The notes beneath the pieces were generated by a model. It had not been told where the DNA came from and searched no databases. It saw only the letters and a list, made by a program, of their open reading frames with translations. DNA of 64,000 nucleotides, from contig CAWBWI010000001.1 of the NCBI GenBank assembly GCA_963792585.1, positions 1,664,001-1,728,000 of the forward strand. The letters run 5' to 3'. Each line of letters begins with the position of its first letter. Position 1 is the stretch's first letter. Source of the stretch: Candidatus Eiseniibacteriota bacterium. Its GTDB lineage: Bacteria > Eisenbacteria > RBG-16-71-46 > CAIMUX01 > VGJL01. Positions 3,650-51,400 of the stretch are shown here, piece after piece. A program made the translations under genes and the position numbers.

Positions 3650-4264
3650 TTACCGGTACAACGACTTCACACGCCCCCACGTCGTCTGGTCCGTCGGGGT
3701 CGACTCGCCGCAGTAACCGGTCCCACGCAGGACGATGTCGTACCCGCCGCCGGCCCAGGATCCTCTCCACGAGGCGAGCGGTCCCGGGGCGCCCTGGCCG
3801 TCGGGCGGGATTTCGACGCTCCGCGGGGCGGTGCTCCAGATATCGAAGCCGCCGGGATCCTGCGCGAAGACATCGTGCAGGCTCACGGCGAGGTAGTAGG
3901 TCCCCGGGTTCAGCACGTAGAGCCCCGTGATCGTGCTCGGGCCGTTGATGTAGAAGCCCTCCTGCGAGGTGATCCCGATGCTGTTGGGATCGAAGAGCCA
4001 GAGCGGCGCGCCGTCGATGTCCGTGCTCTGCAGCTGCGCCAGGAAGAGGGTCTTGTCGGTGATGTTGATGCAGTACATGTCGACGGTGTCGAAGCTGTCG
4101 AGCGTGCCGGTGATGTTCTGAAGCGGGCCATTGCCGATGGTCTGCTGACTCGTCGAGACGAGGTCGCCGGCATCGCCCTGCTCTACCCATGTCTGGGCCG
4201 ATGCGGAAATCGCCGTAGCCATTGAGATGGCGGTCAGCAAACCGAGGAGACGTGAACCAACCAT
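3650..4264 (-). CDS. Secreted DVUA0089/PPC-like domain protein with C-terminal TWGxxKxxYR motif
   Basis: GGAGGA RBS before ATG at 4264; signal peptide; WVEQGDAG...DVDMY-like...LWLFD..G...GTYYLAVS; ends TPTDQTTWGRVKSLYR. Confidence 0.8.
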   Translation of the reverse strand: MVGSRLLGLLTAISMATAISASAQTWVEQGDAGDLVSTSQQTIGNGPLQNITGTLDSFDTVDMYCINITDKTLFLAQLQSTDIDGAPLWLFDPNSIGITSQEGFYINGPSTITGLYVLNPGTYYLAVSLHDVFAQDPGGFDIWSTAPRSVEIPPDGQGAPGPLASWRGSWAGGGYDIVLRGTGYCGESTPTDQTTWGRVKSLYR

Positions 4265-4819
4265 GCGATCCTCCAGCGCGGCCGCTGCTTCCAATCGGGT
4301 CAAGGACGCGGGATACGGAACGGGAGAGTCTATCACATAGTGAGGCTGCATTCTGCGCGAACTCGGGGCCTGCCGGGGAAGACTTCGACCAGGCTGTTCA
4401 GGAGCGAATCACGCCCTCCTGGATCCGGCAAACGGCCGCAAGTCGATCGATCAGATGCTGCGTCTGCTCCAAGTACTGGTTTGCGAGGTCGATCTGATCG
4501 TGCGCGAGAAGCGGTCCTGACCCATCCACGTTCGCGAGCTCGCCCCTTTCAGGGAAGTCACCGAAGCTTCCGGTGACAAGACCGAATAACGTCATCAATC
4601 GCGCAGGACGATTTCTTTGCAGTTCAGGCATGTGCGGAGTGGGCGTCGAGTAAACTCCCGAGCGCAAGCAGGTCATCCCCCGGGCGCACCCCGCCTGATC
4701 TTTGCGCGAGACCTCGATCTCTCTTGACTCCCCCTCCCCAGGCGCACGAAACTCTTCCGTTGCCGCTTGAACCATCCTCCTAGGCTCATCCACCGAGGGG
4801 CATAACGGAAGGACGAACG

Positions 4820-7420
4820 ATGATCGCAAAGACGATCCAGGCGGCCGCGCTTTCGGTAGCAACTCTTGTCCTCATCCTCTTCGCGGTCGCTCCGCTCGCC
4901 GATGGCAAGCCCGACACGTCGGGCAAGTCCGTCGAGTCGAGCATCGCCACCAAGCTCGGTGACTCCGGCAGCCCCACCAAACCAGGCGAATCCGGCAGCC
5001 CCACCGAGCCCGGTGAACCCACCAAGTCCTCCACGCCCGCGGAACCGTGGGAAGAAGGCGAAGACGGCGGCCCCCAGCGCTCGATCGACTACTTCAACCA
5101 GTGGATCGGTGAGCCGCTCACTCCCGAACGGCTCCATCAGATGTGGGATGAGGTTCTCGCCACTCCGTCCGAGCCGCCCGCGGGGGCGCAGGACTTCGTC
5201 AACTCGTGGGAGCTCATCGGTCCGCTCTACAGCGTGAACCCGGGCAGCGGATACATGACGGGTCGCGTGCGCGACATCGAAGCATCGACGACTCGTGTGC
5301 TCGCGGCCAGCGGCGGTCTCTGGCGATTCCACTTCGGGCCGATTCCCATGACGGAATCGATCCCCGCGAGCTGGTTCGGCAGCTTCTCGTCGAAGCCGGG
5401 CGATTCGAACACGATCCTGGTCGGCACCGGGGAATACCTCATCGGGTCGGGCACGGGGCTGTACAAGACACTCGATGGCGGCGCGACCTGGATGCACGCC
5501 TACATGACCCCGGAGCCGGCCCAGTTCCACAAGGTCCGCTGGTCGCCGACGGGCGCGGTCGCCTATGCGGCGACCACGAGCGGCTTCTACCGTTCCACAG
5601 ATGGAGGCTTGGTCTGGAGCCGCACGCTCACGGCCAACGTCACCGACCTCTCCACCGACGACAGCGGCTACTACCCGAACCTGGTCTACGCCTGTGTCTA
5701 CAACGACGGCCTCCACCGTTCGAACGATGCGGGAGTGACCTGGAGCAAGATGACGGATGGAGGCATCCCGCTCACCGGGACGCAGGAAGGAGCGGTCAGC
5801 ACCCCGGCCCACTCCCCATTCGTCCCTGGCTGGATCTACGTCTCGTTCGTGAACGCGGGGGTCTGGCGCTCGACCGACGGCGGCGCGACGTGGGCGAACA
5901 TCACGCCCGCGTCGGATCCCCACCGTTTCTGGTACGCGAACGTGATCGTCGCAGATCGTTGGGAGAACAACTACGTCCTGCTCGGCGGCGTGGGCGCGAG
6001 GGTCTCGGCCGACGGGGGCGCCACCTGGACCGCGCTCGTCACCCCTAATCTCCACGCCGACTATCACGCCTTCTCCTGGAACTCCGACGGCGTCGGGGTC
6101 TGGGCGGGCAATGACGGCGGTTGGTTCCACTCCACCGATCACGGTTTCACCTGGGATTCTTCCGCCAACGTGATGCCGATCACTCAGTTCTACAACATCG
6201 ACTGCGAGAAGTCCGAGATCGGATACATGATCGGCGGGACGCAGGACAACGACCTCGTTTACACCCCCACGCAGGACCTCTTCTGGAGCGACAAGGGCGA
6301 GGGGGACGGTGCGGGGGTCTCCGTCGATCTCTACACGCTCGGCCGGATGTGGGGCATGCACGGTGTATTCGGCGGCAATCTGAGCTACCACCGCGAGCGG
6401 ACCACCAACGGCGGCGTCAGTTGGCAGGAGGTCGACAACGGGATCGACCCGAACACGAACGCCGGCGTGATCCGCGGGGACAATGGGTTCAACCCGTGGC
6501 TGATCACGAGCGCGGGTCCGCACGTCTACGACTCTGTCGACCTTGGCGACACCTGGACGAAGTCGAACACGACGCCCTTCCCCTCCAACATCGCGAACCT
6601 GACCTCCTCCACGCGCGTCAATCCCAACGCGGTCGCCTATGCCTGCATGGCGGGCGTCGTCGGCGGGCAGTCTCTCTTCGTCCGGGACGGAGGCGTTTGG
6701 GTCGACCGCTCGGCGGGGCTGCCCGTGGGGTACACGGTCCGCAAGGTCGTTCCGCATCCCTGGTCCGGCAATTACGCCGACGAGGCGTGGGCGTTGATGA
6801 ACGGAATCAGCAACCCCGGCCAGAAGATCTATCACACGACAAACCGCGGGGTCACATGGACGAACGCCACCGGCGATCTACCCAACGTCCCAGTCGGCGA
6901 CCTCGTCGTTAATCCCCGATCGACGAACCAGCTCGTTCTCGGGTCGATGCTCGGCTGCTACCGCTCGATCGACGGCGGCGCCCACTGGGAGCGGTGGAAC
7001 AACGGGCTGCCCCCGTCGGTCATGGTCACCGAGATGTCCTACATCGACCTCACGCCTTCCGACGGTCCGTTCTACGTGGTGGCGGCGACGCACGGCCGCT
7101 CGGCGTGGAGGCGCATCATCCTGGGGACCGATCCGGCGGCCGTGGAGAATGCCGGGGCCCCGCTTCCTCTCGACCTATCCATTGCGAATCCCGTCGTCGA
7201 GCGCGCGACGTTGCAGTTCTTTCTCCCTCAGGCGGGACCGGCGCGGATCGAAGTCTACGATGTGCGCGGCGAGCGGGTCGCTACCGTCCTCGACGCGACC
7301 GTCTCGCAAGGTCGCCACGAGATCGAGCTCGACGGGCGCACGCTTGCCCCGGGTGTGTTCTTCTGTCGCCTCGATAGCGGCGACCGCACGGTTGTGAGGA
7401 AGATCACCGTGGTGCGGTGA
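4820..7420 (+). CDS. Secreted BNR/Asp-box (Vps10/GH74-like) beta-propeller protein with C-terminal FlgD/T9SS-type domain
   Basis: Signal peptide; WELIGP...GRVRDI, many S/T-x-D-G-G-x-T-W Asp-boxes, LHADYH, GGTQDN, GDG; C-terminal YDVRGERV...PGVFFCRL...KITVVR. Confidence 0.9.
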   Translation: MIAKTIQAAALSVATLVLILFAVAPLADGKPDTSGKSVESSIATKLGDSGSPTKPGESGSPTEPGEPTKSSTPAEPWEEGEDGGPQRSIDYFNQWIGEPLTPERLHQMWDEVLATPSEPPAGAQDFVNSWELIGPLYSVNPGSGYMTGRVRDIEASTTRVLAASGGLWRFHFGPIPMTESIPASWFGSFSSKPGDSNTILVGTGEYLIGSGTGLYKTLDGGATWMHAYMTPEPAQFHKVRWSPTGAVAYAATTSGFYRSTDGGLVWSRTLTANVTDLSTDDSGYYPNLVYACVYNDGLHRSNDAGVTWSKMTDGGIPLTGTQEGAVSTPAHSPFVPGWIYVSFVNAGVWRSTDGGATWANITPASDPHRFWYANVIVADRWENNYVLLGGVGARVSADGGATWTALVTPNLHADYHAFSWNSDGVGVWAGNDGGWFHSTDHGFTWDSSANVMPITQFYNIDCEKSEIGYMIGGTQDNDLVYTPTQDLFWSDKGEGDGAGVSVDLYTLGRMWGMHGVFGGNLSYHRERTTNGGVSWQEVDNGIDPNTNAGVIRGDNGFNPWLITSAGPHVYDSVDLGDTWTKSNTTPFPSNIANLTSSTRVNPNAVAYACMAGVVGGQSLFVRDGGVWVDRSAGLPVGYTVRKVVPHPWSGNYADEAWALMNGISNPGQKIYHTTNRGVTWTNATGDLPNVPVGDLVVNPRSTNQLVLGSMLGCYRSIDGGAHWERWNNGLPPSVMVTEMSYIDLTPSDGPFYVVAATHGRSAWRRIILGTDPAAVENAGAPLPLDLSIANPVVERATLQFFLPQAGPARIEVYDVRGERVATVLDATVSQGRHEIELDGRTLAPGVFFCRLDSGDRTVVRKITVVR
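4958..5011 (+). repeat. Intragenic 27-bp tandem repeat (GDSGSPTKP / GESGSPTEP)
   Basis: Units 4958-4984 and 4985-5011 in the low-complexity linker after the signal peptide. Confidence 0.7.
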
Positions 7421-7666
7421 TTGGAGCAGTGAGTGCGGCATAAGCCGGTGATCGGAGCCGGGAGGACAGGGACGTCTTCTCGGCTCCGGCGTTTGCGGCA
7501 CGCACGCATGCGCGGGCCGACCGCCCACTCACAGTCGGAAGATAAGAAGTCGCTCTCGGCCGACCCACAACCCCGCGAATCCCGTGACTCAGCGGGAACA
7601 TCGGCGTATGATTGCCGTTGTCAAAATCCCATGGAGAATTCTCGGGGTTCCACCGAGGAGGGCTCG

Positions 7667-9889
7667 ATGCGCCGCGCACTTCTGTTTGTCTTCCTTCTGT
7701 CTGCACCCGGCTTGTTCGCGTCCTCGGCCCACGCCTTCACGGGCCATCCGACGGGTCCGTCCACCGTGGCGATCAACTCCGTCCTGGCATCGCCGTGGAC
7801 GGACGGCGAGTGGTACGCGGGTTCGGCCAACACCGTTTATCGCTATAGCCCGGCGACCGACGCTTGGACTTCCTCCGGCGACGGGCTTCCGTTCGGGCAG
7901 GTCACGAGCCTCGTCGGTGGTCCAAACATGTTCGGGCTGCTCTACTGCGCCGTCCCTGCGCAGGGCGCCTGCCGGTCGACGGACTACGGCGGGTCCTGGA
8001 TCGGGATCAATAACGGACTCGACAACCTGAACGTCTCCGCGCTCGCACTCGATCCATCGCACCCGCACAACGTCTTCGCCGCCACGGGCGCGGGGGTCTA
8101 CAAGAGCACGAACAGCGGCGACACGTGGATCGCGGGCGGACTTGCGGGCAAGCCGGTCCTCGACATCGCCTTCGGTTCGAGCGGCACCACGTATGCGTGG
8201 GCCTCGGTCTCCGGCGAGGGGATCTACCGGACTTCTGACCACGGAGCGACCTGGAACATCGCTTCCAACGGGATGACGGGAGAGAAGATCTTCCACGACG
8301 TAAAGGTCCAGTTGTACGGACACATCTACGCGGTGGGCCGGGGGTGCTTCCGCTCGACGAACGGAGGCGACTCGTGGACCGCCTTCGGCGCGGAGTACGG
8401 GTCTCCCTACACCGAGGTCTGGGAGATCGCCGGGCGACCGAACGACCCGCACCAGGTCGCCGTCGCGACTCTAGGAAGCGGCGTCTGGCGGTCGACGGAT
8501 GGCGGCGTCACCTGGGCGCCGATCCCGCCCCCCTGCACCGGTCACGAGTACCTGGCGATCGCCTCGCGCTTCTTCGACACCGGCGAGGTTCTCGTGGGCG
8601 GATACGGCGGCGAGATCTTCCGCTCTGACGCCTTCGGCGACGCCTGGCACTGGTGCAACCGTGGGATCTCCACGGCGATCGTCTTCTCGATGGCCGCGCA
8701 CGGGGAACGCTGGCTGGCGGGAACCGAGCGCGGGATCTACGTCAGCGAGAACTCCGGCTTCGACTGGGAGACTTCGGACCTGGTGTTTGACGTCGGCGCG
8801 GAGGCCTTCACCGTCGTCTTCGCGCCGGGAGACGGGATGACGGCCTGGTGCGGGACGGCTTCCCTCGACGCGGGCGAGATCTACAAGAGCGTCGACGGCG
8901 GCCATCACTGGACACCCGTTCGCGCGACCGCGGGGAGCATGAAGGCTCTGGCTGTGGATCCAGTCGATCCGTCACGAGTTTACGCGGGGTACACCTGCAA
9001 CCTGGTCCGCACGACCGACGGCGGGTCGAGCTGGATCGTCCAGAGCTTGGACGGGGTCTGCGTCAACGCGCTGCAGGTGATCGAGGCGACGCCGTCGATC
9101 ATCCTGGCCGGCACGAACAACGGGATCTGGCGCAGCACGAACTACGGAGATACGTGGGAGCAGGTCGGCCTCACCGGCACGCTAGTTCTCGACATCTCCG
9201 CGGATGCGAGCGTGGCGAGCCGCTTCTTTGCCGCGACCATCGGTTCCCGCGTCCATGTAACGAACGACTTCGGCGTCACCTGGTCCCCCTTCGGCGGGAA
9301 CGACCTGCCCGTCAATGTCTACTCGGTCGACGGCATGACGCCGGCGGCGGGCGTGCTCGCGGGAACGGAGGCCAACGGGATCTGGCGGTACACGGGATCG
9401 GACTGGGCACAGCTTCCCACTGAGGAGCAACCGAACGCGAGTGGAATCCTCTGCTTCGTGGGCGGGATCGATGGTGGGCGGTTCCTGGCGGGCACCTACG
9501 GCGCGGGGGTGTGGGACTACATCGTGAATCCGTCCTTGGTCGAGGATCTGGGCGGCAAACGTTTGCCGCTGAAGCTCGCGGTGACCGGTTCGCCTGGGAG
9601 CGGGCCGTTCCGGATGGAGTTGGCGGGCGGCACAGTGGCGTCGGGGCGCGCGGCAACGCGCAGCGAGACGGCTGGGGCCACAGCGGGGCGCGTCGAGATC
9701 CTCGATGCACTCGGACGCACCGTGCGCGTGATCGACACGGCGGGGCCGGGTGCGCCCGGCGCCGCTTCCTCGACCTGGGATGGACGCGATACTCACGGCG
9801 ACGATGTTCCCGCCGGGATCTACTTCGTGCGGGCGCGCGTCGTGGCCGGCGGTGCCGTCGCCGGAGCGAAGATCACGGTGGTGCGGTAG
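7667..9889 (+). CDS. Secreted BNR/Asp-box beta-propeller protein with C-terminal FlgD-Ig domain
   Basis: GAGGAGG RBS before ATG 7667 (MRRALLFVFLL signal); repeated RSTDxGxxW; C-terminal WDGRDTHGDDVPAGIYFVR...KITVVR. Confidence 0.88.
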   Translation: MRRALLFVFLLSAPGLFASSAHAFTGHPTGPSTVAINSVLASPWTDGEWYAGSANTVYRYSPATDAWTSSGDGLPFGQVTSLVGGPNMFGLLYCAVPAQGACRSTDYGGSWIGINNGLDNLNVSALALDPSHPHNVFAATGAGVYKSTNSGDTWIAGGLAGKPVLDIAFGSSGTTYAWASVSGEGIYRTSDHGATWNIASNGMTGEKIFHDVKVQLYGHIYAVGRGCFRSTNGGDSWTAFGAEYGSPYTEVWEIAGRPNDPHQVAVATLGSGVWRSTDGGVTWAPIPPPCTGHEYLAIASRFFDTGEVLVGGYGGEIFRSDAFGDAWHWCNRGISTAIVFSMAAHGERWLAGTERGIYVSENSGFDWETSDLVFDVGAEAFTVVFAPGDGMTAWCGTASLDAGEIYKSVDGGHHWTPVRATAGSMKALAVDPVDPSRVYAGYTCNLVRTTDGGSSWIVQSLDGVCVNALQVIEATPSIILAGTNNGIWRSTNYGDTWEQVGLTGTLVLDISADASVASRFFAATIGSRVHVTNDFGVTWSPFGGNDLPVNVYSVDGMTPAAGVLAGTEANGIWRYTGSDWAQLPTEEQPNASGILCFVGGIDGGRFLAGTYGAGVWDYIVNPSLVEDLGGKRLPLKLAVTGSPGSGPFRMELAGGTVASGRAATRSETAGATAGRVEILDALGRTVRVIDTAGPGAPGAASSTWDGRDTHGDDVPAGIYFVRARVVAGGAVAGAKITVVR

Positions 9890-9990: not shown

Positions 9991-10599
9991 TCACGATCGT
10001 TGGTGAGCGCCCGCGAGTTCGCTCGCGCGCCCCGCGCGCGTCGCGTCGGTGACCTCGACCAGGCGGCCCGTCTTCACGTCGTAGACGTAACCGTAGATCG
10101 GGATCTCCGGTGGGACGAGCGGGTGGCGGCGGATGCGATCGACATCCTCTACCACCGACTTCTCCTGGTTCTTGATGGTCAGCCAGTTGATGAAGCGTCC
10201 TTCGTCCGATCCGCCGCCGCCACCCGGGTCCTTCCAGGCGCCGCCCTCGAGGCCCGCGGTCCGGAGACTGCTCGCCAGGAGGCCGCGAATCGTCTCGTCG
10301 TCGAAGTAGAGCATTCCGCAGTCGGAGTGATGGATGACGAACCACTCGCGCGTGCCGAGCAGCTTGTACGAGATGACGAGCGATCGGATCGCGTCGTCGC
10401 TCGCGCGGCCGCCCGCGTTGCGGATCACGTGCGCGTCGCCTTCCGCCAGCCCGGCGTACTTGGCGGGATCGAGACGAGCGTCCATGCACGTGAGGATGGC
10501 GAATTGGCGCGCCGGCGGCAGCGCGAGCTGCCCCTTGGCGCCAAACGAACTCACATAGGCGGCATTCGCTGCCAGGACTTCATGGAGGATCTTGCTCAT
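9991..10599 (-). CDS. Beta-class carbonic anhydrase, clade D (Rv1284 / COS hydrolase-like)
   Basis: Zinc ligands CMDAR and [20 protein letters not shown] motifs. Confidence 0.92.
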
Positions 10600-10633
10600 G
10601 GTGTCAGTGCTCCCTGCTCCGATTCATTCGCTT

Positions 10634-10662
10634 AAAACAAAACGCCGGCCATGGGGCCGGCG
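10634..10662 (-). terminator. Intrinsic terminator in the 5' leader of the carbonic anhydrase gene (attenuator)
   Basis: Minus strand reads CGCCGGCC-CCAT-GGCCGGCG-TTTTGTTTT, about 35 nt upstream of the CA start codon. Confidence 0.85.
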
Positions 10663-10692
10663 GGTTCTCGATGAGCCTCTGGACGCTTCGCC

Positions 10693-10797
10693 CTAGATGC
10701 TAGGCGTCCTCCCGCCGGCACACCCTCGGCGACAACAACAAGCGCCCAAGCTGTTGCCATACAACACGTTGTGGGTCCGATGGGTGAGATTCAACAT
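10693..10797 (-). CDS. Cysteine-rich attenuator leader peptide (34 aa, MLNLTHRTHNVLYGNSLGACCCRRGCAGGRTPSI)
   Basis: ATG at 10797, TAG at 10695-10693; TGT TGT TGT run plus a fourth TGT; lies between the promoter and the terminator. Confidence 0.8.
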   Translation of the reverse strand: MLNLTHRTHNVLYGNSLGACCCRRGCAGGRTPSI

Positions 10798-10803
10798 GTT
10801 ATT

Positions 10804-10832
10804 AGCATAATGCTCAACATTAGTCAGGGCAA
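10804..10832 (-). promoter_or_regulatory. Sigma70-type promoter TTGCCC-N17-TATGCT driving an apparently leaderless leader peptide
   Basis: -35 at 10832-10827, -10 at 10809-10804; the ATG begins 7 nt after the -10 element, and there is no RBS. Confidence 0.7.
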
Positions 10833-10995
10833 GAGGATTCTACCGGACCCGAGAGGACGGGAAGCAACGCTGCACCGTATTGACACCCGCGCTGAGGCGA
10901 TGCAAGGATCGGTGCTCCAGTGCGAACGTCCCGGATGAACCCGAAGCAAACCCGGGATCGGTCCGGTGGACACGACCGAATGGCTCCAAGGAGGA

Positions 10996-11742
10996 ATGAT
11001 GACCTGGCACCGGATGGACCGCGGATTCTCTCTCACGTTGGGGACGTTCTCCCTGCTCCTGCTCGCCCTCGCTTGGGCCCCGATCGTTCACGCCGCGGGC
11101 GGCGGCCAGGCATCGGCCGACTTCGTGATCGGTGTACCCAGCGGGGAATTCAAGGATCAGCTGGACAAGAACGGATACGGCGCCTCGGGCCGCATCGCGT
11201 GGCGGCCGCAAGGCAGTCCCATCCTCCTCGGTGTCGAGGGCGGCTTCATGGTCCTCGGCCACGAGTCGCGTCGCGAGCCGTTCAGCACCACCATCCCCGA
11301 CGTGACAGTCGAGGTCGTGACGGACAACAATCTGGTCCAGGGCGACTTTCTGCTCCGCCTTCAGCCCTCCGGTGGCGCCGTGCGTCCCTACGCCGATGGG
11401 CTCATCGGATTCAACTACCTCTTCACCAAGACGGCGATCAAGAACGCGAGCAACGATGAAGAGGTCGCGAGTTCAACGAACTTCGACGACACGACGATCA
11501 ACTACGGCGGCGGCGGGGGTTTGATGTTCGTCGTCTACACGGGCAAGAAGGCGGAGACGCCCGGAAAGTCCGACGTGAAGAACGTCATGATCGACGTGGG
11601 GGTTCGTTACATGGCGGGCGGCGAGGCGCGCTATCTCAAGAAGGGCTCCATCCGCCGGGAAGAAGGCCGTGTCCGCTACCGCGTCAGCGAATCGAAGACC
11701 GACCTCGTCACTATCCGGATCGGCGCGGCGGTGGAGTTCTAG
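10996..11742 (+). CDS. Outer-membrane beta-barrel protein
   Basis: AGGAGG RBS, signal peptide, alternating beta-strand pattern (RPYADGLIGFNY, GGGGGLMF), C-terminal Phe (IGAAVEF). Exact start uncertain. Confidence 0.8.
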   Translation: MMTWHRMDRGFSLTLGTFSLLLLALAWAPIVHAAGGGQASADFVIGVPSGEFKDQLDKNGYGASGRIAWRPQGSPILLGVEGGFMVLGHESRREPFSTTIPDVTVEVVTDNNLVQGDFLLRLQPSGGAVRPYADGLIGFNYLFTKTAIKNASNDEEVASSTNFDDTTINYGGGGGLMFVVYTGKKAETPGKSDVKNVMIDVGVRYMAGGEARYLKKGSIRREEGRVRYRVSESKTDLVTIRIGAAVEF

Positions 11743-11837
11743 AGACCGACCGTGAGTCCCAGCGGGACGCGGCGGGACGGCCCCCGCCGCGATCCCCAAG
11801 CCCACACTACAGCCTCCTTGTAGCAACGAGAATGTGT

Positions 11838-11892: not shown

Positions 11893-11955
11893 CCTCGGTT
11901 CGCTGAATACGGCCGCCGCGACGCGATTGACATGAAATCCCAAGGAGGGGCGACC

Positions 11956-12756
11956 GTGGCCAAGGAACAGGACAAGATCAGTCAAACTTTGAAGCAACTC
12001 GCCGAACAGGCGCGTTTGGATTCGATCGGCAGCATCGACTACCTCACGAACGCCAAGGCGATCGCTCTCGCCGACGGCAAGGTCCAGGATGCCATCAAGG
12101 AAGTTCTGAAACGAGACATGCGACTGACGGAGATTCGCCCCATGCGCGGCTTCGGCTCCGGCCTCATGTCCTTCCCCATCCAATTGGTATTCCGTTCGGG
12201 AACCGGTGACAGCCCGATCGATCTCGAGACCGTGTCCTTGGTCGTCACGGTGGAGATCCCCACGCGCTCGGTCAAGCGCGTCGCCGAGGCTCCCGCCGGG
12301 ATCGAGGGAGCTGCGGGGGACATCCCCTTCTCGATCGCGGCGACGGCGCACGCCCCCTATCGCGGCGCGCCGCTCACCGAACTCCAGGGCAGGACGATGC
12401 GGGAGAGCGCATTCTACGCCGGCCTCGGATTCCCCGTGGGTGCAGGTCGCCCGTCGGCGGGGCAGTGGACGATCGACGACTACAAGACCAGCGACACCCC
12501 CACGGGAACGGACACCGGGAGCACCTCCTACTCCGACGGCGTGGCCGACGACTCGGAGGTCGACGATTCGGGTTCCGACGAGCCAGTCATCGACGACCAC
12601 ATCACCGAGGGGCACCCGGGAGATCCCGGATACTGGTCGCCGTTCGATCCGGGCCGCCCTTTCGGAGGCGATCTCCCCCGACCCGGCGACCGTCCGGGTG
12701 TCGGCCCGCGACCGGATCCGCGAGGAGGCACTGCCCGCAAGCGGTCCGGACGATGA
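11956..12756 (+). CDS. Putative large graspetide (omega-ester RiPP) precursor / ATP-grasp substrate protein
   Basis: AAGGAGGGG RBS before GTG 11956 (alternative ATG 11932); internal TIDDYKTSDTPTGTDTGSTSYSDGVADDSEVDDSGSDEPVIDD segment; stop overlaps the ATP-grasp start (ATGA). Confidence 0.7.
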   Translation: MAKEQDKISQTLKQLAEQARLDSIGSIDYLTNAKAIALADGKVQDAIKEVLKRDMRLTEIRPMRGFGSGLMSFPIQLVFRSGTGDSPIDLETVSLVVTVEIPTRSVKRVAEAPAGIEGAAGDIPFSIAATAHAPYRGAPLTELQGRTMRESAFYAGLGFPVGAGRPSAGQWTIDDYKTSDTPTGTDTGSTSYSDGVADDSEVDDSGSDEPVIDDHITEGHPGDPGYWSPFDPGRPFGGDLPRPGDRPGVGPRPDPRGGTARKRSGR

Positions 12757-13679
12757 TTCTCCTGATCGCGGAGCCGCAGGATGTCCACGCACGCGTGGTG
12801 GCGCGCCGCCTCGAGCTGCGCGGTGTCTCTCATGCGATCGTGAACTCAGCCGATTTTCCACAGCGCCTGAGGATCTCCGCGCGCTATGCGGATGGCCGCT
12901 TCGCGATCCGCATGGCGAACGGCTCCCCCATCGTCCAGGACGAGGAGATCCAGGGCGTCTGGTTGCGCCGATTCCACGCGCACGACATCTCGACGGCGAT
13001 CTCTGACGAGGCGGTTGCCGCATTCGCCTATCGGGAGGCGCGCGAGCTGTTCCTTGGCTGGACGGCCAGCGTGCGCAATGTCATCAATCCTCGCAGCGAG
13101 GAGTGGCGGGCGGAGCTGAAGCCGTTCCAGCTCTTCGCTGCGCAGGAAGTCGGCCTGCGAATCCCGCGAACCCTGGTCTCGAACGACCCGGCCGAGATCC
13201 ACGCGTTCGCCGACTCGCTCGGCGGCGAGGCGATCTTCAAGGTCCTCTCGGCGACACCGTTCCAGTTCACGGCAACTACGGTCCTCGAGGAACGTCATCT
13301 GGCGATGCTCGATGCCGCGCCCCTCGCGCCCACGATATTCCAGGAACGGATCCGGGCCGACCGGCACCTGCGCGTGACGGTGGTGGACGACCATGTCTTC
13401 ACGGCGGCGATCGAGCCGGTCCGCGAGGAGGGGATGCTCGACTGGAGGCTGGATCGCGACCCGAAGATGGAACCCTACGACCTACCCGAATCGATCGAGC
13501 AGGGCGTGCTGGCGTTGCGCCGCCGGCTCGGATTGCGGTTTGGGGCGATCGACATGATCCTCGACACCAAGGGCGAGTACGTATTCCTGGAGATCAACCC
13601 GGGCGGGCAGTGGCTCTTCGCCGAGATTCATGCGGGGCTGCCGATCTCGGACGCGATCGCGGATGCGCTGATCGGGTAG
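12753..13679 (+). CDS. MvdC/MvdD-family ATP-grasp ribosomal peptide maturase (graspetide synthetase)
   Basis: MILLI..P.D.HA..V, DFP, VWLRR, KPFQL..A..VGLRIPRTLVSNDP, IFQERI, RVTVV, DWR, FGAIDMI, FLEINPGGQWLF. Confidence 0.9.
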   Translation: MILLIAEPQDVHARVVARRLELRGVSHAIVNSADFPQRLRISARYADGRFAIRMANGSPIVQDEEIQGVWLRRFHAHDISTAISDEAVAAFAYREARELFLGWTASVRNVINPRSEEWRAELKPFQLFAAQEVGLRIPRTLVSNDPAEIHAFADSLGGEAIFKVLSATPFQFTATTVLEERHLAMLDAAPLAPTIFQERIRADRHLRVTVVDDHVFTAAIEPVREEGMLDWRLDRDPKMEPYDLPESIEQGVLALRRRLGLRFGAIDMILDTKGEYVFLEINPGGQWLFAEIHAGLPISDAIADALIG

Positions 13680-48472: not shown

Positions 48473-51400
48473 AGCTCTGCGAACTCTCCATCCAGCGGCC
48501 GGTCTTCGCGACGGTGATGAGCCTCGCGATCATCCTCTTCGGGGTCATCGCCTTCACGCGTCTTCCCGTGCGCGAGTACCCGGACATCGATCCGCCGATC
48601 GTCTCGATCACGACCTTCTACCGCGGCGCGAGCCCGAGCGTCGTCGAGACCGAGATCACGAACGTCCTCGAGGAGCAGCTCGCCACCCTCGAAGGGGTCA
48701 AGACGATCGACCTCGATCGAGCCAGGAGCAGGGCTCGGTCGATCACGATCGAGTTCGAGCTGAACCGCGACGTCGACGAGGCGGCGAACGACGTGCGCGA
48801 CCGGGTCTCGCGGATCCGCGGCTCGCTCCCGCGCGAGGCCGACGACCCGATCGTCGCGAAGGTCGACGTCAACGCCCAGCCGATCGTCTGGATCGCCCTC
48901 TCGAGCGACCCGCCACGACGGACTCGAGCTGACCGACGTCGCCGACCGCGTCCTGAAGGAGCGGATCCAGCGGCTGCCGGGCGTCGGCGTCGGTCATCAT
49001 CGGCGGCGAGCGCCGCTACGCGATGCGCGTCTGGCTCGACCCGATGCGGATGGCCGCCCACGGTCTGACGGCGCAGGACATCGAGGCGGCGATCCGGACG
49101 CGAGAACGCCGAGATCCCCGGCGGCCGCGTCGAGGGAACCGGGCGCGAGTTCGCGGTGCGCACGCGCGGCGACCTGACCACGCCCGAGGAGTTCGCGGCG
49201 ATCATCGTCACGCAGAGCGAGAACGACGTCGTGCGCCTGGGCGACGTGGCCGAGGTCGCGATCGGCGCCGAGGACGAGCGGACCGTCGCGCGCTACAACG
49301 GCCAGCCGGCCGTCGGCCTCGGCATCGTCAAGCAGTCGAAGGCGAGCACGATCGACGTCGCCGCGCGCCGTGCGCGGCGCGCTGCCCGAGCTGTCGCAGA
49401 GCCGCTGCCCGAGGGCATGCGCCTCGACGTCGCCTACGACTCCTCGACCTTCATCGAGGATTCGATCCACGAGGTGACGGACACGCTCCTGATCGCCATG
49501 TGCCTCGTCGTGCTCGTGATCCTGGTCTTCCTGAAGAGCTTCCGCGCGACGATGATCCCGACGATCGCGATCCCGATCTCGATCATCGGCACCTTCGCGG
49601 TGGCCTACTTCCTGGGCTTCACGATCAACATCCTGACGCTGCTGGCGCTCGTGCTCGCGATCGGACTCGTCGTGGACGACGCCATCGTCGTGCTGGAGAA
49701 CATCTTCCGGCACATGGAGATGGGCAAGAGGACGCAGGCAGGCGGCGTTCGACGGCTCCAAGGAGATCGGCTTCGCCGTCCTCGCGACGACGATCGCGCT
49801 GGTCGCGGTCTTCGTCCCGGTCGCCTTCCTGACCGGCACCGTCGGGCGGCTCTTCAAGGAGTTCGGCATCTCGGTGGCGGTCGCGGTGCTGATCTCGGGA
49901 TTCGTCGCACTGACCCTGACGCCGATGCTCTGCTCGCGGATGCTGCGGCCGCTGCACGGCGGCGGCACGGGCTGGACGACCCGCTCCTTCGACGCCTTCT
50001 TCAACTTCCTCGATCGCGTCGTACGAGCAGACGCTGCGCACGGCGCTCCGCCGCCGTCCCGCTCGTCGTCGCGGCCGCCGTCGCGTTGATCGTGGTGAGC
50101 GTGGGGGTCTTCAAGCTGCTCCCGCGCGAGCTGGTGCCGACCGAGGACCGCGGCATCGCCTTCGGCATCGTCATCGCGCCGGAGGGCTCGACGCTCGACT
50201 ACACGGACCGCTACATGCGGCAGGTCGAAGCGATTCTGCTGCCCCTGCCGGAGCGCAACGGACTCTTCACCGCGATCGGCTCTCGGCTTCGGCGGGCCCG
50301 GGACGGTCACCAACGGCTTCGTCTTCCTCAACCTGAAGCCGCGCGCCGAGCGCGACGAAGTCCCAGCAGGAGATCGTCGCAGGAGCTCTTCCCGCAGCTC
50401 TGATCTCGATCCCCGGCGTGCTCGCCTTCGTGATCAACCCGCCGAGCCTCGGCGGGCAGTTTCGCCTCGAGTCCGGTGGAGTACGTCCTGCAGGCGGAGA
50501 GCTACGACGAGCTGCGCCGGCGCGGTCGGCACGATGATGGCCAAGGCATCGAAGCTCGGCTACCTGGTCAACCTGGACACCGACCTGCGTCTCAACAAGC
50601 CGCAGCTCGACATCGCGATCGACCGCGAGCGGGCCGCGGGCCTCGGCGTCTCGGTCACCGACATCGGCACGCACGCTGGAGACGTTCCTCGGCGGCCGCG
50701 TGGTGAGCGAGTTCAAGCGCGGCGACGAAGCAGTACGACGTCATCGCGCAGATGAAGGCCGGCCGGTCGCGCGACCCCAGACGCGATCGACGGCATCTAC
50801 CTGCGCGGCAACGGCGGCCTGGTGCAGCTCGCGAACGTCGTGAACGTGCAGCGAGACGGTGGCGCCGAAGGAGCTGAACCACTATCAACCGCGTGCGCTC
50901 GGCGACGATCACGGCGAATCTCGCGCCGGGCGTGAGCCTCGGGACGGCCCTGGACGCTCTCGACCGGATCGCCAGGCGAGAGCTGCCCCCGTCGATCAAG
51001 CGCGAGCTTTCGGCGGCCAGTCGCGCGAGTTCCGCGAGTCGAGCTCCAGCCTCTACTTCATGTTCCTGCTCGCGGTGGTCTTCATCTTCCTGGTGCTGGC
51101 CGCGCAGTTCGAGAGCTTCGTCCACCCGCTCACGATCCTGCTCTCGGTGCCGCTGGCCGTGGTCGGCGCGCTCGTCTCGCTCTATCGTGTTCCGCCAGAG
51201 CATGAACATCTACTCGCAGATCGGGCTGATCATGCTGATCGGCCTGGTGACGAAGAACTCGATCCTGATCGTCGAGTACGCGAACCAGCTTCGCGCGCGC
51301 GGGATGGACGACGGTCGAGGCGGTGGTGGAGGCCGCGCGCATCCGGCTGCGACCGATCCTCATGACCTCCTTCGCGACGATCTTCGGCATCCTGCCGATC

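Follow-up and report, generated by a model that had tools for sequence, protein, structure and literature searches.

What does a short open reading frame (ORF) with a run of cysteine codons do upstream of a carbonic anhydrase gene, and why would such a gene answer to cysteine? The question is raised by a locus on the minus strand of a 64,000-nt stretch of DNA (here called the window) from a Candidatus Eiseniibacteriota bacterium, for which an initial annotation had proposed a complete cysteine-sensing transcription attenuator. The genome encodes LpxC and belongs to a phylum represented by 206 genomes, so the host is Gram-negative and no actinobacterium, in agreement with that annotation. Our analysis of the sequence leads us to regard the locus as a ribosome-mediated, cysteine-sensing transcription attenuator that is likely functional, with a probability of roughly 0.87.

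Organization of the leader

All elements of the leader that had been described are present on the minus strand, at the coordinates claimed and in the right order. A putative -35 box, TTGCCC (10832-10827; 4/6 consensus match), is followed after a 17-nt spacer by a putative -10 box, TATGCT (10809-10804), and 6 nt further on, ATG at 10797 opens a leader ORF of 34 aa, MLNLTHRTHNVLYGNSLGACCCRRGCAGGRTPSI (10797-10693, with TAG at 10695), without a Shine-Dalgarno (SD) sequence. The putative sensor codons are three consecutive TGT codons, Cys20-Cys21-Cys22 (10740-10732), and a further TGT, Cys26, lies at 10722-10720. Directly past it and still within the ORF, 21 to 29 nt beyond the first Cys codon, is the predicted 5' strand of the antiterminator, GCCGGCGGG (10719-10711). 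Its exact complement, CCCGCCGGC (10664-10656), forms part of the 5' arm of a predicted intrinsic terminator (10664-10634) with eight G-C pairs (10662-10643), a 4-nt loop and then TTTTGTTTT. The region that closes the antiterminator loop contains a candidate internal hairpin, GGACGC/GCGTCC (10709-10704/10686-10681). Only 34 nt separate the U tract from the ATG of the target gene (9991-10599, minus strand), which has its own SD-like site and encodes a clade D-type beta-carbonic anhydrase (beta-CA) of 202 aa with a Pfam Pro_CA domain. An Rfam scan of the 64,000-nt window matched no family.

In the mechanism that we propose, transcription would begin at or next to ATG 10797 and a ribosome would load on the transcript without an SD sequence. 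When Cys-tRNA is scarce, this ribosome would pause at Cys20-22, so that 10719-10711 stays exposed and can pair with 10664-10656 while the 3' arm of the terminator has yet to be made, and RNA polymerase would read through. With ample cysteine, the ribosome would reach TAG at 10695 and cover the 10719-10711 strand, and with this strand covered, the hairpin and U tract would stop transcription some 35 nt short of the enzyme gene.

The promoter is weak, with 8/12 consensus matches for TTGCCC-17-TATGCT, and positions 10829 and 10828 of the -35 box differ in a close relative. The corresponding sequence in G003, a relative from the same family, is TTGACC-17-TACAAT. A consensus promoter scan did not list the minus-strand promoter and listed instead a plus-strand promoter-like site at 10784-10811, which overlaps the leader start. 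Predicted pairing with the anti-SD sequence amounts to -1.9 kcal/mol at the leader, compared with -6.9 kcal/mol at the enzyme gene, and the 6-nt gap at the window leader is compatible with a transcript beginning at the AUG. Across the same genome, a TAnnnT box 6 to 9 nt before ATG was counted 75 times for 3,725 start-region ATGs versus 21 times for 4,925 internal ATGs, and 28 of 54 TTG-bearing cases had a gap of 6 to 9 nt. The gap between -10 box and start peaks at 6 and 9 nt in metagenomic homologues, and the leaders of relatives have either 7 to 10 nt from -10 box to ATG or an SD-like site. From these features we infer leaderless initiation at ATG 10797. Since two of four leaders upstream of cysteine operons in the phylum (see below) have SD-like sites, a leaderless start is not required.

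Folding of the leader RNA

When nascent RNA ending at the terminator loop was folded, the 9-bp antiterminator had a probability of 1.00 with a ribosome at Cys20, 21 or 22, 0.11 with a ribosome at Cys26 and 0.00 with a ribosome at the stop codon, which is the outcome expected from the folding with and without ribosome occlusion that the initial annotation had suggested as a check. The Escherichia coli leaders trpL, thrL, hisL and leuL followed the same trend under identical occlusion folding. By folding and shuffling, the antiterminator is thus predicted to be exclusive with the terminator, free at a stall and covered at the stop; its duplex (-25.4 kcal/mol) beats 200/200 shuffles (p = 0.005). 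The switch helix pairs with a terminator arm, and the SD-like site of the enzyme gene lies about 50 nt downstream of this arm.

Two details of the earlier description need correction. Stalling had been assigned to the Cys codons without distinction; Cys20-22 stand as putative sensors, but Cys26 is likely no sensor because a ribosome there would cover the antiterminator and because the codon is Gly in the close relative. The GGACGC/GCGTCC hairpin had been assigned the role of bringing the antiterminator strands together, and although its sequences are present, it is not the dominant fold that closes the loop, with a probability of 0.19 in the antiterminated state and an alternative hairpin closing the same loop at 0.9 kcal/mol better.

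Predictions for the untranslated default diverge. Without a ribosome, the nascent RNA still folds into the antiterminator with a probability of 1.00 (E. coli trp 0.30, his 0.00, leu 0.04 and thr 0.69), while the full-length fold is the terminator, and the thrL control is likewise ambiguous. When the full-length RNA is folded to equilibrium, the terminator is at least as favored as the antiterminator even with a stalled ribosome, and the attenuator model therefore needs co-transcriptional kinetics, that is, the order of folding. Full-length equilibrium folding was dropped as a test because the four known E. coli attenuators, trpL, thrL, hisL and leuL, also favor the terminator with a stalled ribosome (0.94 to 1.00).

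Conservation upstream of the enzyme gene

Contigs of a relative with about 94% identity span the leader and show 109 differences over 10005-11796. The leader ORF has at least 10 changes, and among the differences listed there is no indel and none falls in Cys20-22 or in the antiterminator strand, while Cys26 is changed to Gly; we regard this comparison as supportive of conservation at the sequence level. The sequencing runs compared had shares of at most 0.29, and the comparison concerns contigs only. Within the phylum, the enzyme was found at E ≤ 1e-40 in 7/206 genomes, and a Cys-Cys leader with a terminator precedes it in five of the seven (the window genome, G005, G003, G136 and G079), in line with the suggestion that conserved Cys runs should be found upstream of orthologous CA genes. 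The Cys run is CCCC in G005 (MQPDPRHFSCCCC...) and G003 (MDLILYHLACCCC...), CCC in G136, where the leader start is cut by the contig end, and CC in G079, which has a weaker -10 box and U tract. No leader was found before the more distant enzymes of G009 and G017 (56 to 57% identical). The leader peptides are otherwise unalignable, and the Cys run is their sole common part. When the three leaders from the same family were aligned as DNA, their Cys runs fell out of register, and no covariation was drawn from this alignment.

Upstream DNA was sufficient in 78 of the best 80 enzyme loci in GTDB, and a Cys leader was flagged in 7 of these versus 1 on the opposite strand. By eye, 4/78 were clear, namely, three in Gemmatimonadota with a terminator and one in Terriglobales without; the three Gemmatimonadota leaders come from only four enzyme loci of that phylum. 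The leader marks a minority of the enzyme family. In an enzyme tree from a quick search, with 71/141 inner branches open, the label of leader plus terminator takes 19 changes, at least 4 of them forced.

A metagenomic search pattern that combined Cys-Cys and TTTT with the enzyme motif matched 92 stretches, of which 80 were fetched and 70 were unique, and the features used in the frame and antiterminator tests were absent from this selection pattern. A TAnnnT box with ATG or GTG 4 to 11 nt downstream was in the Cys frame at 36/70 loci and in each of the other two frames at one locus, and after clustering of the loci at 70%, the figures were 27/50 clusters versus 1 and 1. The antiterminator set (n = 51) left out the 27/70 metagenomic loci without a -13 kcal/mol hairpin and added 8 genome loci. 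In 33/51 leaders the antiterminator reached p ≤ 0.05, with a median position of 21 to 36 nt past the first Cys codon and the stop at 45, and in 18/51 it had p > 0.05, including G003 (0.25) and G136 (0.26). For 23/51 terminator arms, the leader's own cognate region was among the top 5 of 51, and for the arm in the window it ranked first. Some loci (L051, L095 and metagenomic loci such as L144, L167 and L184) have Cys-Cys short ORFs before the enzyme gene without a terminator hairpin; such ORFs often end directly past the Cys run and are possibly a translational form.

Cys leaders upstream of cysteine operons

A pattern made from the G003/G005 terminator matched 5/206 phylum genomes and none in the control; the matches were G003 and G005 themselves, an apparently unrelated one in G037 and two new ones. 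Inspection of the two new matches and one more sulfite reductase locus revealed four Cys leaders, each with a terminator. Two of them are less than 3 kb apart in G025 (contig C17), where one precedes the siroheme genes cysG-hemA/cobA (L239:605; antiterminator p = 0.62) and the other, with seven Cys codons, precedes a sat-sulfite reductase-cysH-cysM-MoeB-like cluster (L239:3438; p = 0.005). The remaining two are located before sat (L241:4518, G013:C36; p = 0.015) and before cysK-cysE (L240:455, G045:C23; p = 0.03). That Cys leaders head what are, by gene content, true cysteine operons is the strongest sign that this layout senses cysteine. The proposal that a stalled ribosome frees the antiterminator thus fits the occlusion folding, the relatives, the metagenomic frame and pairing tests and the leaders of cys operons alike.

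A looser pattern matched 25/206 genomes of the phylum and also the reversed control, and by eye nearly all of these matches were due to chance. A candidate for a further regulon member is the leader MLIGHVCPLCAFTMCCCPPCGREGACLIR in G166 (L264:1460-1610, contig C83), where TTGACT-17-TAATCT, a gap of 6 nt and a terminator precede a RimK-like ATP-grasp gene. No Cys leaders were found before the cysK-type and Cys/Met PLP loci of the genomes that carry the leader, nor before cysS in the three of these five genomes that were inspected. Searches of the window genome for short ORFs ahead of terminators or behind promoter-like boxes found no further Cys leader.

The enzyme and its possible role in sulfur supply

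By its sequence, the downstream enzyme is a clade D (Cab-type) beta-CA, an assignment that comes from sequence search without a tree containing reference enzymes. The putative Zn ligands C38, H91 and C94 are in place, with the Cys-x-Asp-x-Arg and His-x-x-Cys site, and the nearest solved chains are 5ZTP, the Aspergillus CafC (6JQC), Rv1284 (1YLK), 3LAS, a COS hydrolase (3VQJ) and a CS2 hydrolase (3TEN). The next gene (7433-9889, plus strand) converges on the enzyme gene, which is therefore likely transcribed alone. COS and CS2 hydrolases belong to clade D (PMC12035519, PMC8209446), and PMC12035519 places CafC there as well. The clade is also that of Rv1284, which has high CA activity, and according to the same source, no residue or structural feature separates COSases from Rv1284. 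Leu25 and Leu78 of CafC are tied there to low CO2 activity, although they are called not decisive; the equivalents in our enzyme are L27 and L81. A fungal clade D COS hydrolase, the Trichoderma COSase, improved the growth of E. coli about tenfold when COS was its only source of sulfur (PMC10880591), and according to that paper, it is unknown which role the degradation of COS plays in heterotrophic bacteria.

These properties make a COS-type role in sulfur supply plausible for the predicted enzyme. cysE-cysK is present in the window genome, and sulfite reductase gave no hit in any of the five leader genomes. Since the reductase is rare across the phylum (absent from 199/206 genomes and present in 7/206), its absence does not single out the leader genomes. 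A PF01507 hit in the window genome was rejected as CysH, as it was not recognized by NCBIfam. Sulfur-type genes were neighbors at 4/80 enzyme loci, with 104 frames scanned, which is weak support for a sulfur role. On balance, we give an even chance to the enzyme releasing H2S for CysK by hydrolysis of COS or a similar compound, in a cell in which sulfite reductase was not detected. A gene switched on by cysteine starvation carries a testable prediction, namely, that the enzyme supplies sulfur and is expressed at low cysteine.

The cysE-cysK genes (G000:C3:866551-868500) contain frameshifts, and so does cysS on the same contig, as judged from a partial match. These frameshifts are probably single-base assembly errors and call for caution with frame-based claims in this genome.

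Weighing of alternative explanations

The terminator and ORF could be incidental, with an ORF arising by chance in a divergent promoter region rich in AT and the true start of the enzyme transcript nearer its own gene. In-frame runs of at least three Cys codons number 303 in the genome, so that a Cys run by itself means little; the plus-strand promoter-like site overlaps the ATG, and the fold of the leader as a whole is no better than that of shuffles (z = -0.90). The combination of Cys-Cys ORF, -10 box and terminator is rare, however. Among 79 strict terminators genome-wide, four have a -10 box and short ORF upstream and one, the window locus, has Cys-Cys; among 92 genome-wide TTG...TAnnnT-short-ORF starts, Cys-Cys occurs only there. 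(TGT makes up 488/3,319 of the Cys codons sampled in this genome.) Chance would also have to account for a layout that is kept in five of the seven phylum genomes and reads in one frame in the metagenomic loci, for an antiterminator that changes to match as the terminator sequence changes and for a U tract so close to the enzyme ATG, and we consider this explanation very improbable. It is slightly easier, though still improbable, to imagine a leader that responds to any slowing of the ribosome in its middle, by peptide arrest, a drug, the Arg codons CGC CGA or thiol oxidation, and not to Cys-tRNA. Stalls from about codon 16 onward favor the antiterminator too, and Arg is frequent directly past the Cys run in homologues. 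Against this, peptides that cannot otherwise be aligned have the Cys run alone in common, and the same run heads cysteine operons.

The attenuator may be real and the enzyme an ordinary CO2/bicarbonate CA, or one with another substrate, that is linked to cysteine through, for example, redox sensitivity of its zinc-cysteine site or protection from sulfide. We hold this to be a possibility of some substance, short of an even one. Beyond the high CA activity of Rv1284 in the same clade (PMC12035519), the enzyme sequence is nearer 5ZTP, CafC, Rv1284 and 3LAS than the Thiobacillus COS hydrolase, and most close homologues have neither the leader nor sulfur neighbors. On the other hand, expression is predicted to go up at low cysteine, in the manner of biosynthetic genes, leaders of the same kind are found before sat, sulfite reductase and cysK in this phylum, and four of the five leader genomes already have a second, canonical beta-CA. 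The retention of L27 and L81, matching Leu25 and Leu78 of CafC, points the same way, with the reservation in PMC12035519 that these residues are not decisive. Returning to the attenuator as a sensor of cysteine, we see the odds as evenly balanced for the broader proposal that terminator-type poly-Cys attenuators form an unrecognized cysteine regulon in several uncultured Gram-negative lineages, in which the clade D beta-CA would supply cysteine synthesis in heterotrophs with H2S from COS or a related thiocarbonyl. If this proposal is true, bacterial COS uptake would be switched by cysteine status.

Relation to known attenuators

The principle of such attenuation is known. As in E. coli trpL, hisL, thrL and leuL, there are sensor codons, an antiterminator strand that a ribosome at the stop codon can reach and a GC hairpin with a U tract, and as is required of such systems, the predicted terminator lies between the leader and the structural gene and the short leader ORF has a conserved run of codons for the amino acid that is presumably sensed. 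Unlike these four, the leader senses Cys on our reading and has no SD sequence, the nascent RNA shows no clear protector pairing, and the target is no annotated biosynthetic enzyme.

Polycysteine leaderless sORF attenuators (Ms5788A and others) have been demonstrated in mycobacteria (Canestrari et al., bioRxiv 10.1101/834739). The window ORF shares several features with them: it is short, lies upstream of an annotated gene and has two or more Cys codons in a row; it is unannotated and apparently leaderless; and a stalled ribosome is proposed to switch on the genes downstream. In Ms5788A, the case dissected, the downstream SD is hidden and control is translational, with the mechanism at other loci left open in that report (10.1101/834739). 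The locus differs from Ms5788A in its Gram-negative host and in having an intrinsic terminator with an antiterminator, and hiding of the downstream SD was not seen in our folds, which ended short of the SD. A beta-CA target also sets the locus apart from the mycobacterial sORFs as described in the text of that report, the operon genes of its Table 1 aside. Cys leader peptides have further been predicted before cys/cbs operons of Actinobacteria, where terminator hairpins were not found according to PMC1262725; these share with our leaders a short ORF that carries a Cys run and precedes cysteine genes, whereas the terminator hairpin is present and conserved here.

A terminator-type Cys attenuator outside Actinobacteria had been put forward by the initial annotation as a novelty, and in this respect the locus is less new than claimed: uORFC-8-2, before cysS in Rhodobacterales, was already predicted to be of this type (PMC8632094). 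It has tandem Cys codons, an intrinsic terminator and the same proposed mechanism. Lineage and target differ, with a beta-CA here in place of cysS, UGC dominates there versus UGU here, and a leaderless start is not claimed in the description of uORFC-8-2. The loci collected here provide dozens of natural examples of terminator-type Cys attenuators, a form that we found in print as a prediction and for which we found no demonstration. In the open-licence literature, supplements and image tables aside, we found no carbonic anhydrase gene reported to have a Cys leader, and the accessible text of PMC13236596 adds nothing on CAs. On the side of the enzyme, the known COS hydrolases of Thiobacillus (3VQJ) and Trichoderma (COSase) are assigned to the same clade, and the predicted Zn ligands are kept (PMC10880591, PMC8209446, PMC12035519).

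Other features of the window and genome

The divergent gene at 10966-11742 (plus strand) has no Pfam hit and resembles outer membrane beta-barrel clusters, and a small protein and an ATP-grasp ligase are encoded as a pair at 11932-13679 (plus strand). On the other side of the enzyme gene, secreted-looking proteins are encoded at 3650-4351 (minus strand), 4820-7420 (plus strand) and 7433-9889 (plus strand), the last with BNR/sortilin repeats and an FlgD Ig-like C-terminal domain. The protein from 3650-4351 ends in the C-terminal tail TWGRVKSLYR, which we take to be typical of some candidate phyla. ARAGORN reported a 75-nt tRNA-Cys on G000:C1 at 50788-50862, and at 127609-127700 and 683832-683927 of the same contig, it reported a second, 92-nt tRNA-Cys(GCA) and a tRNA-Sec.
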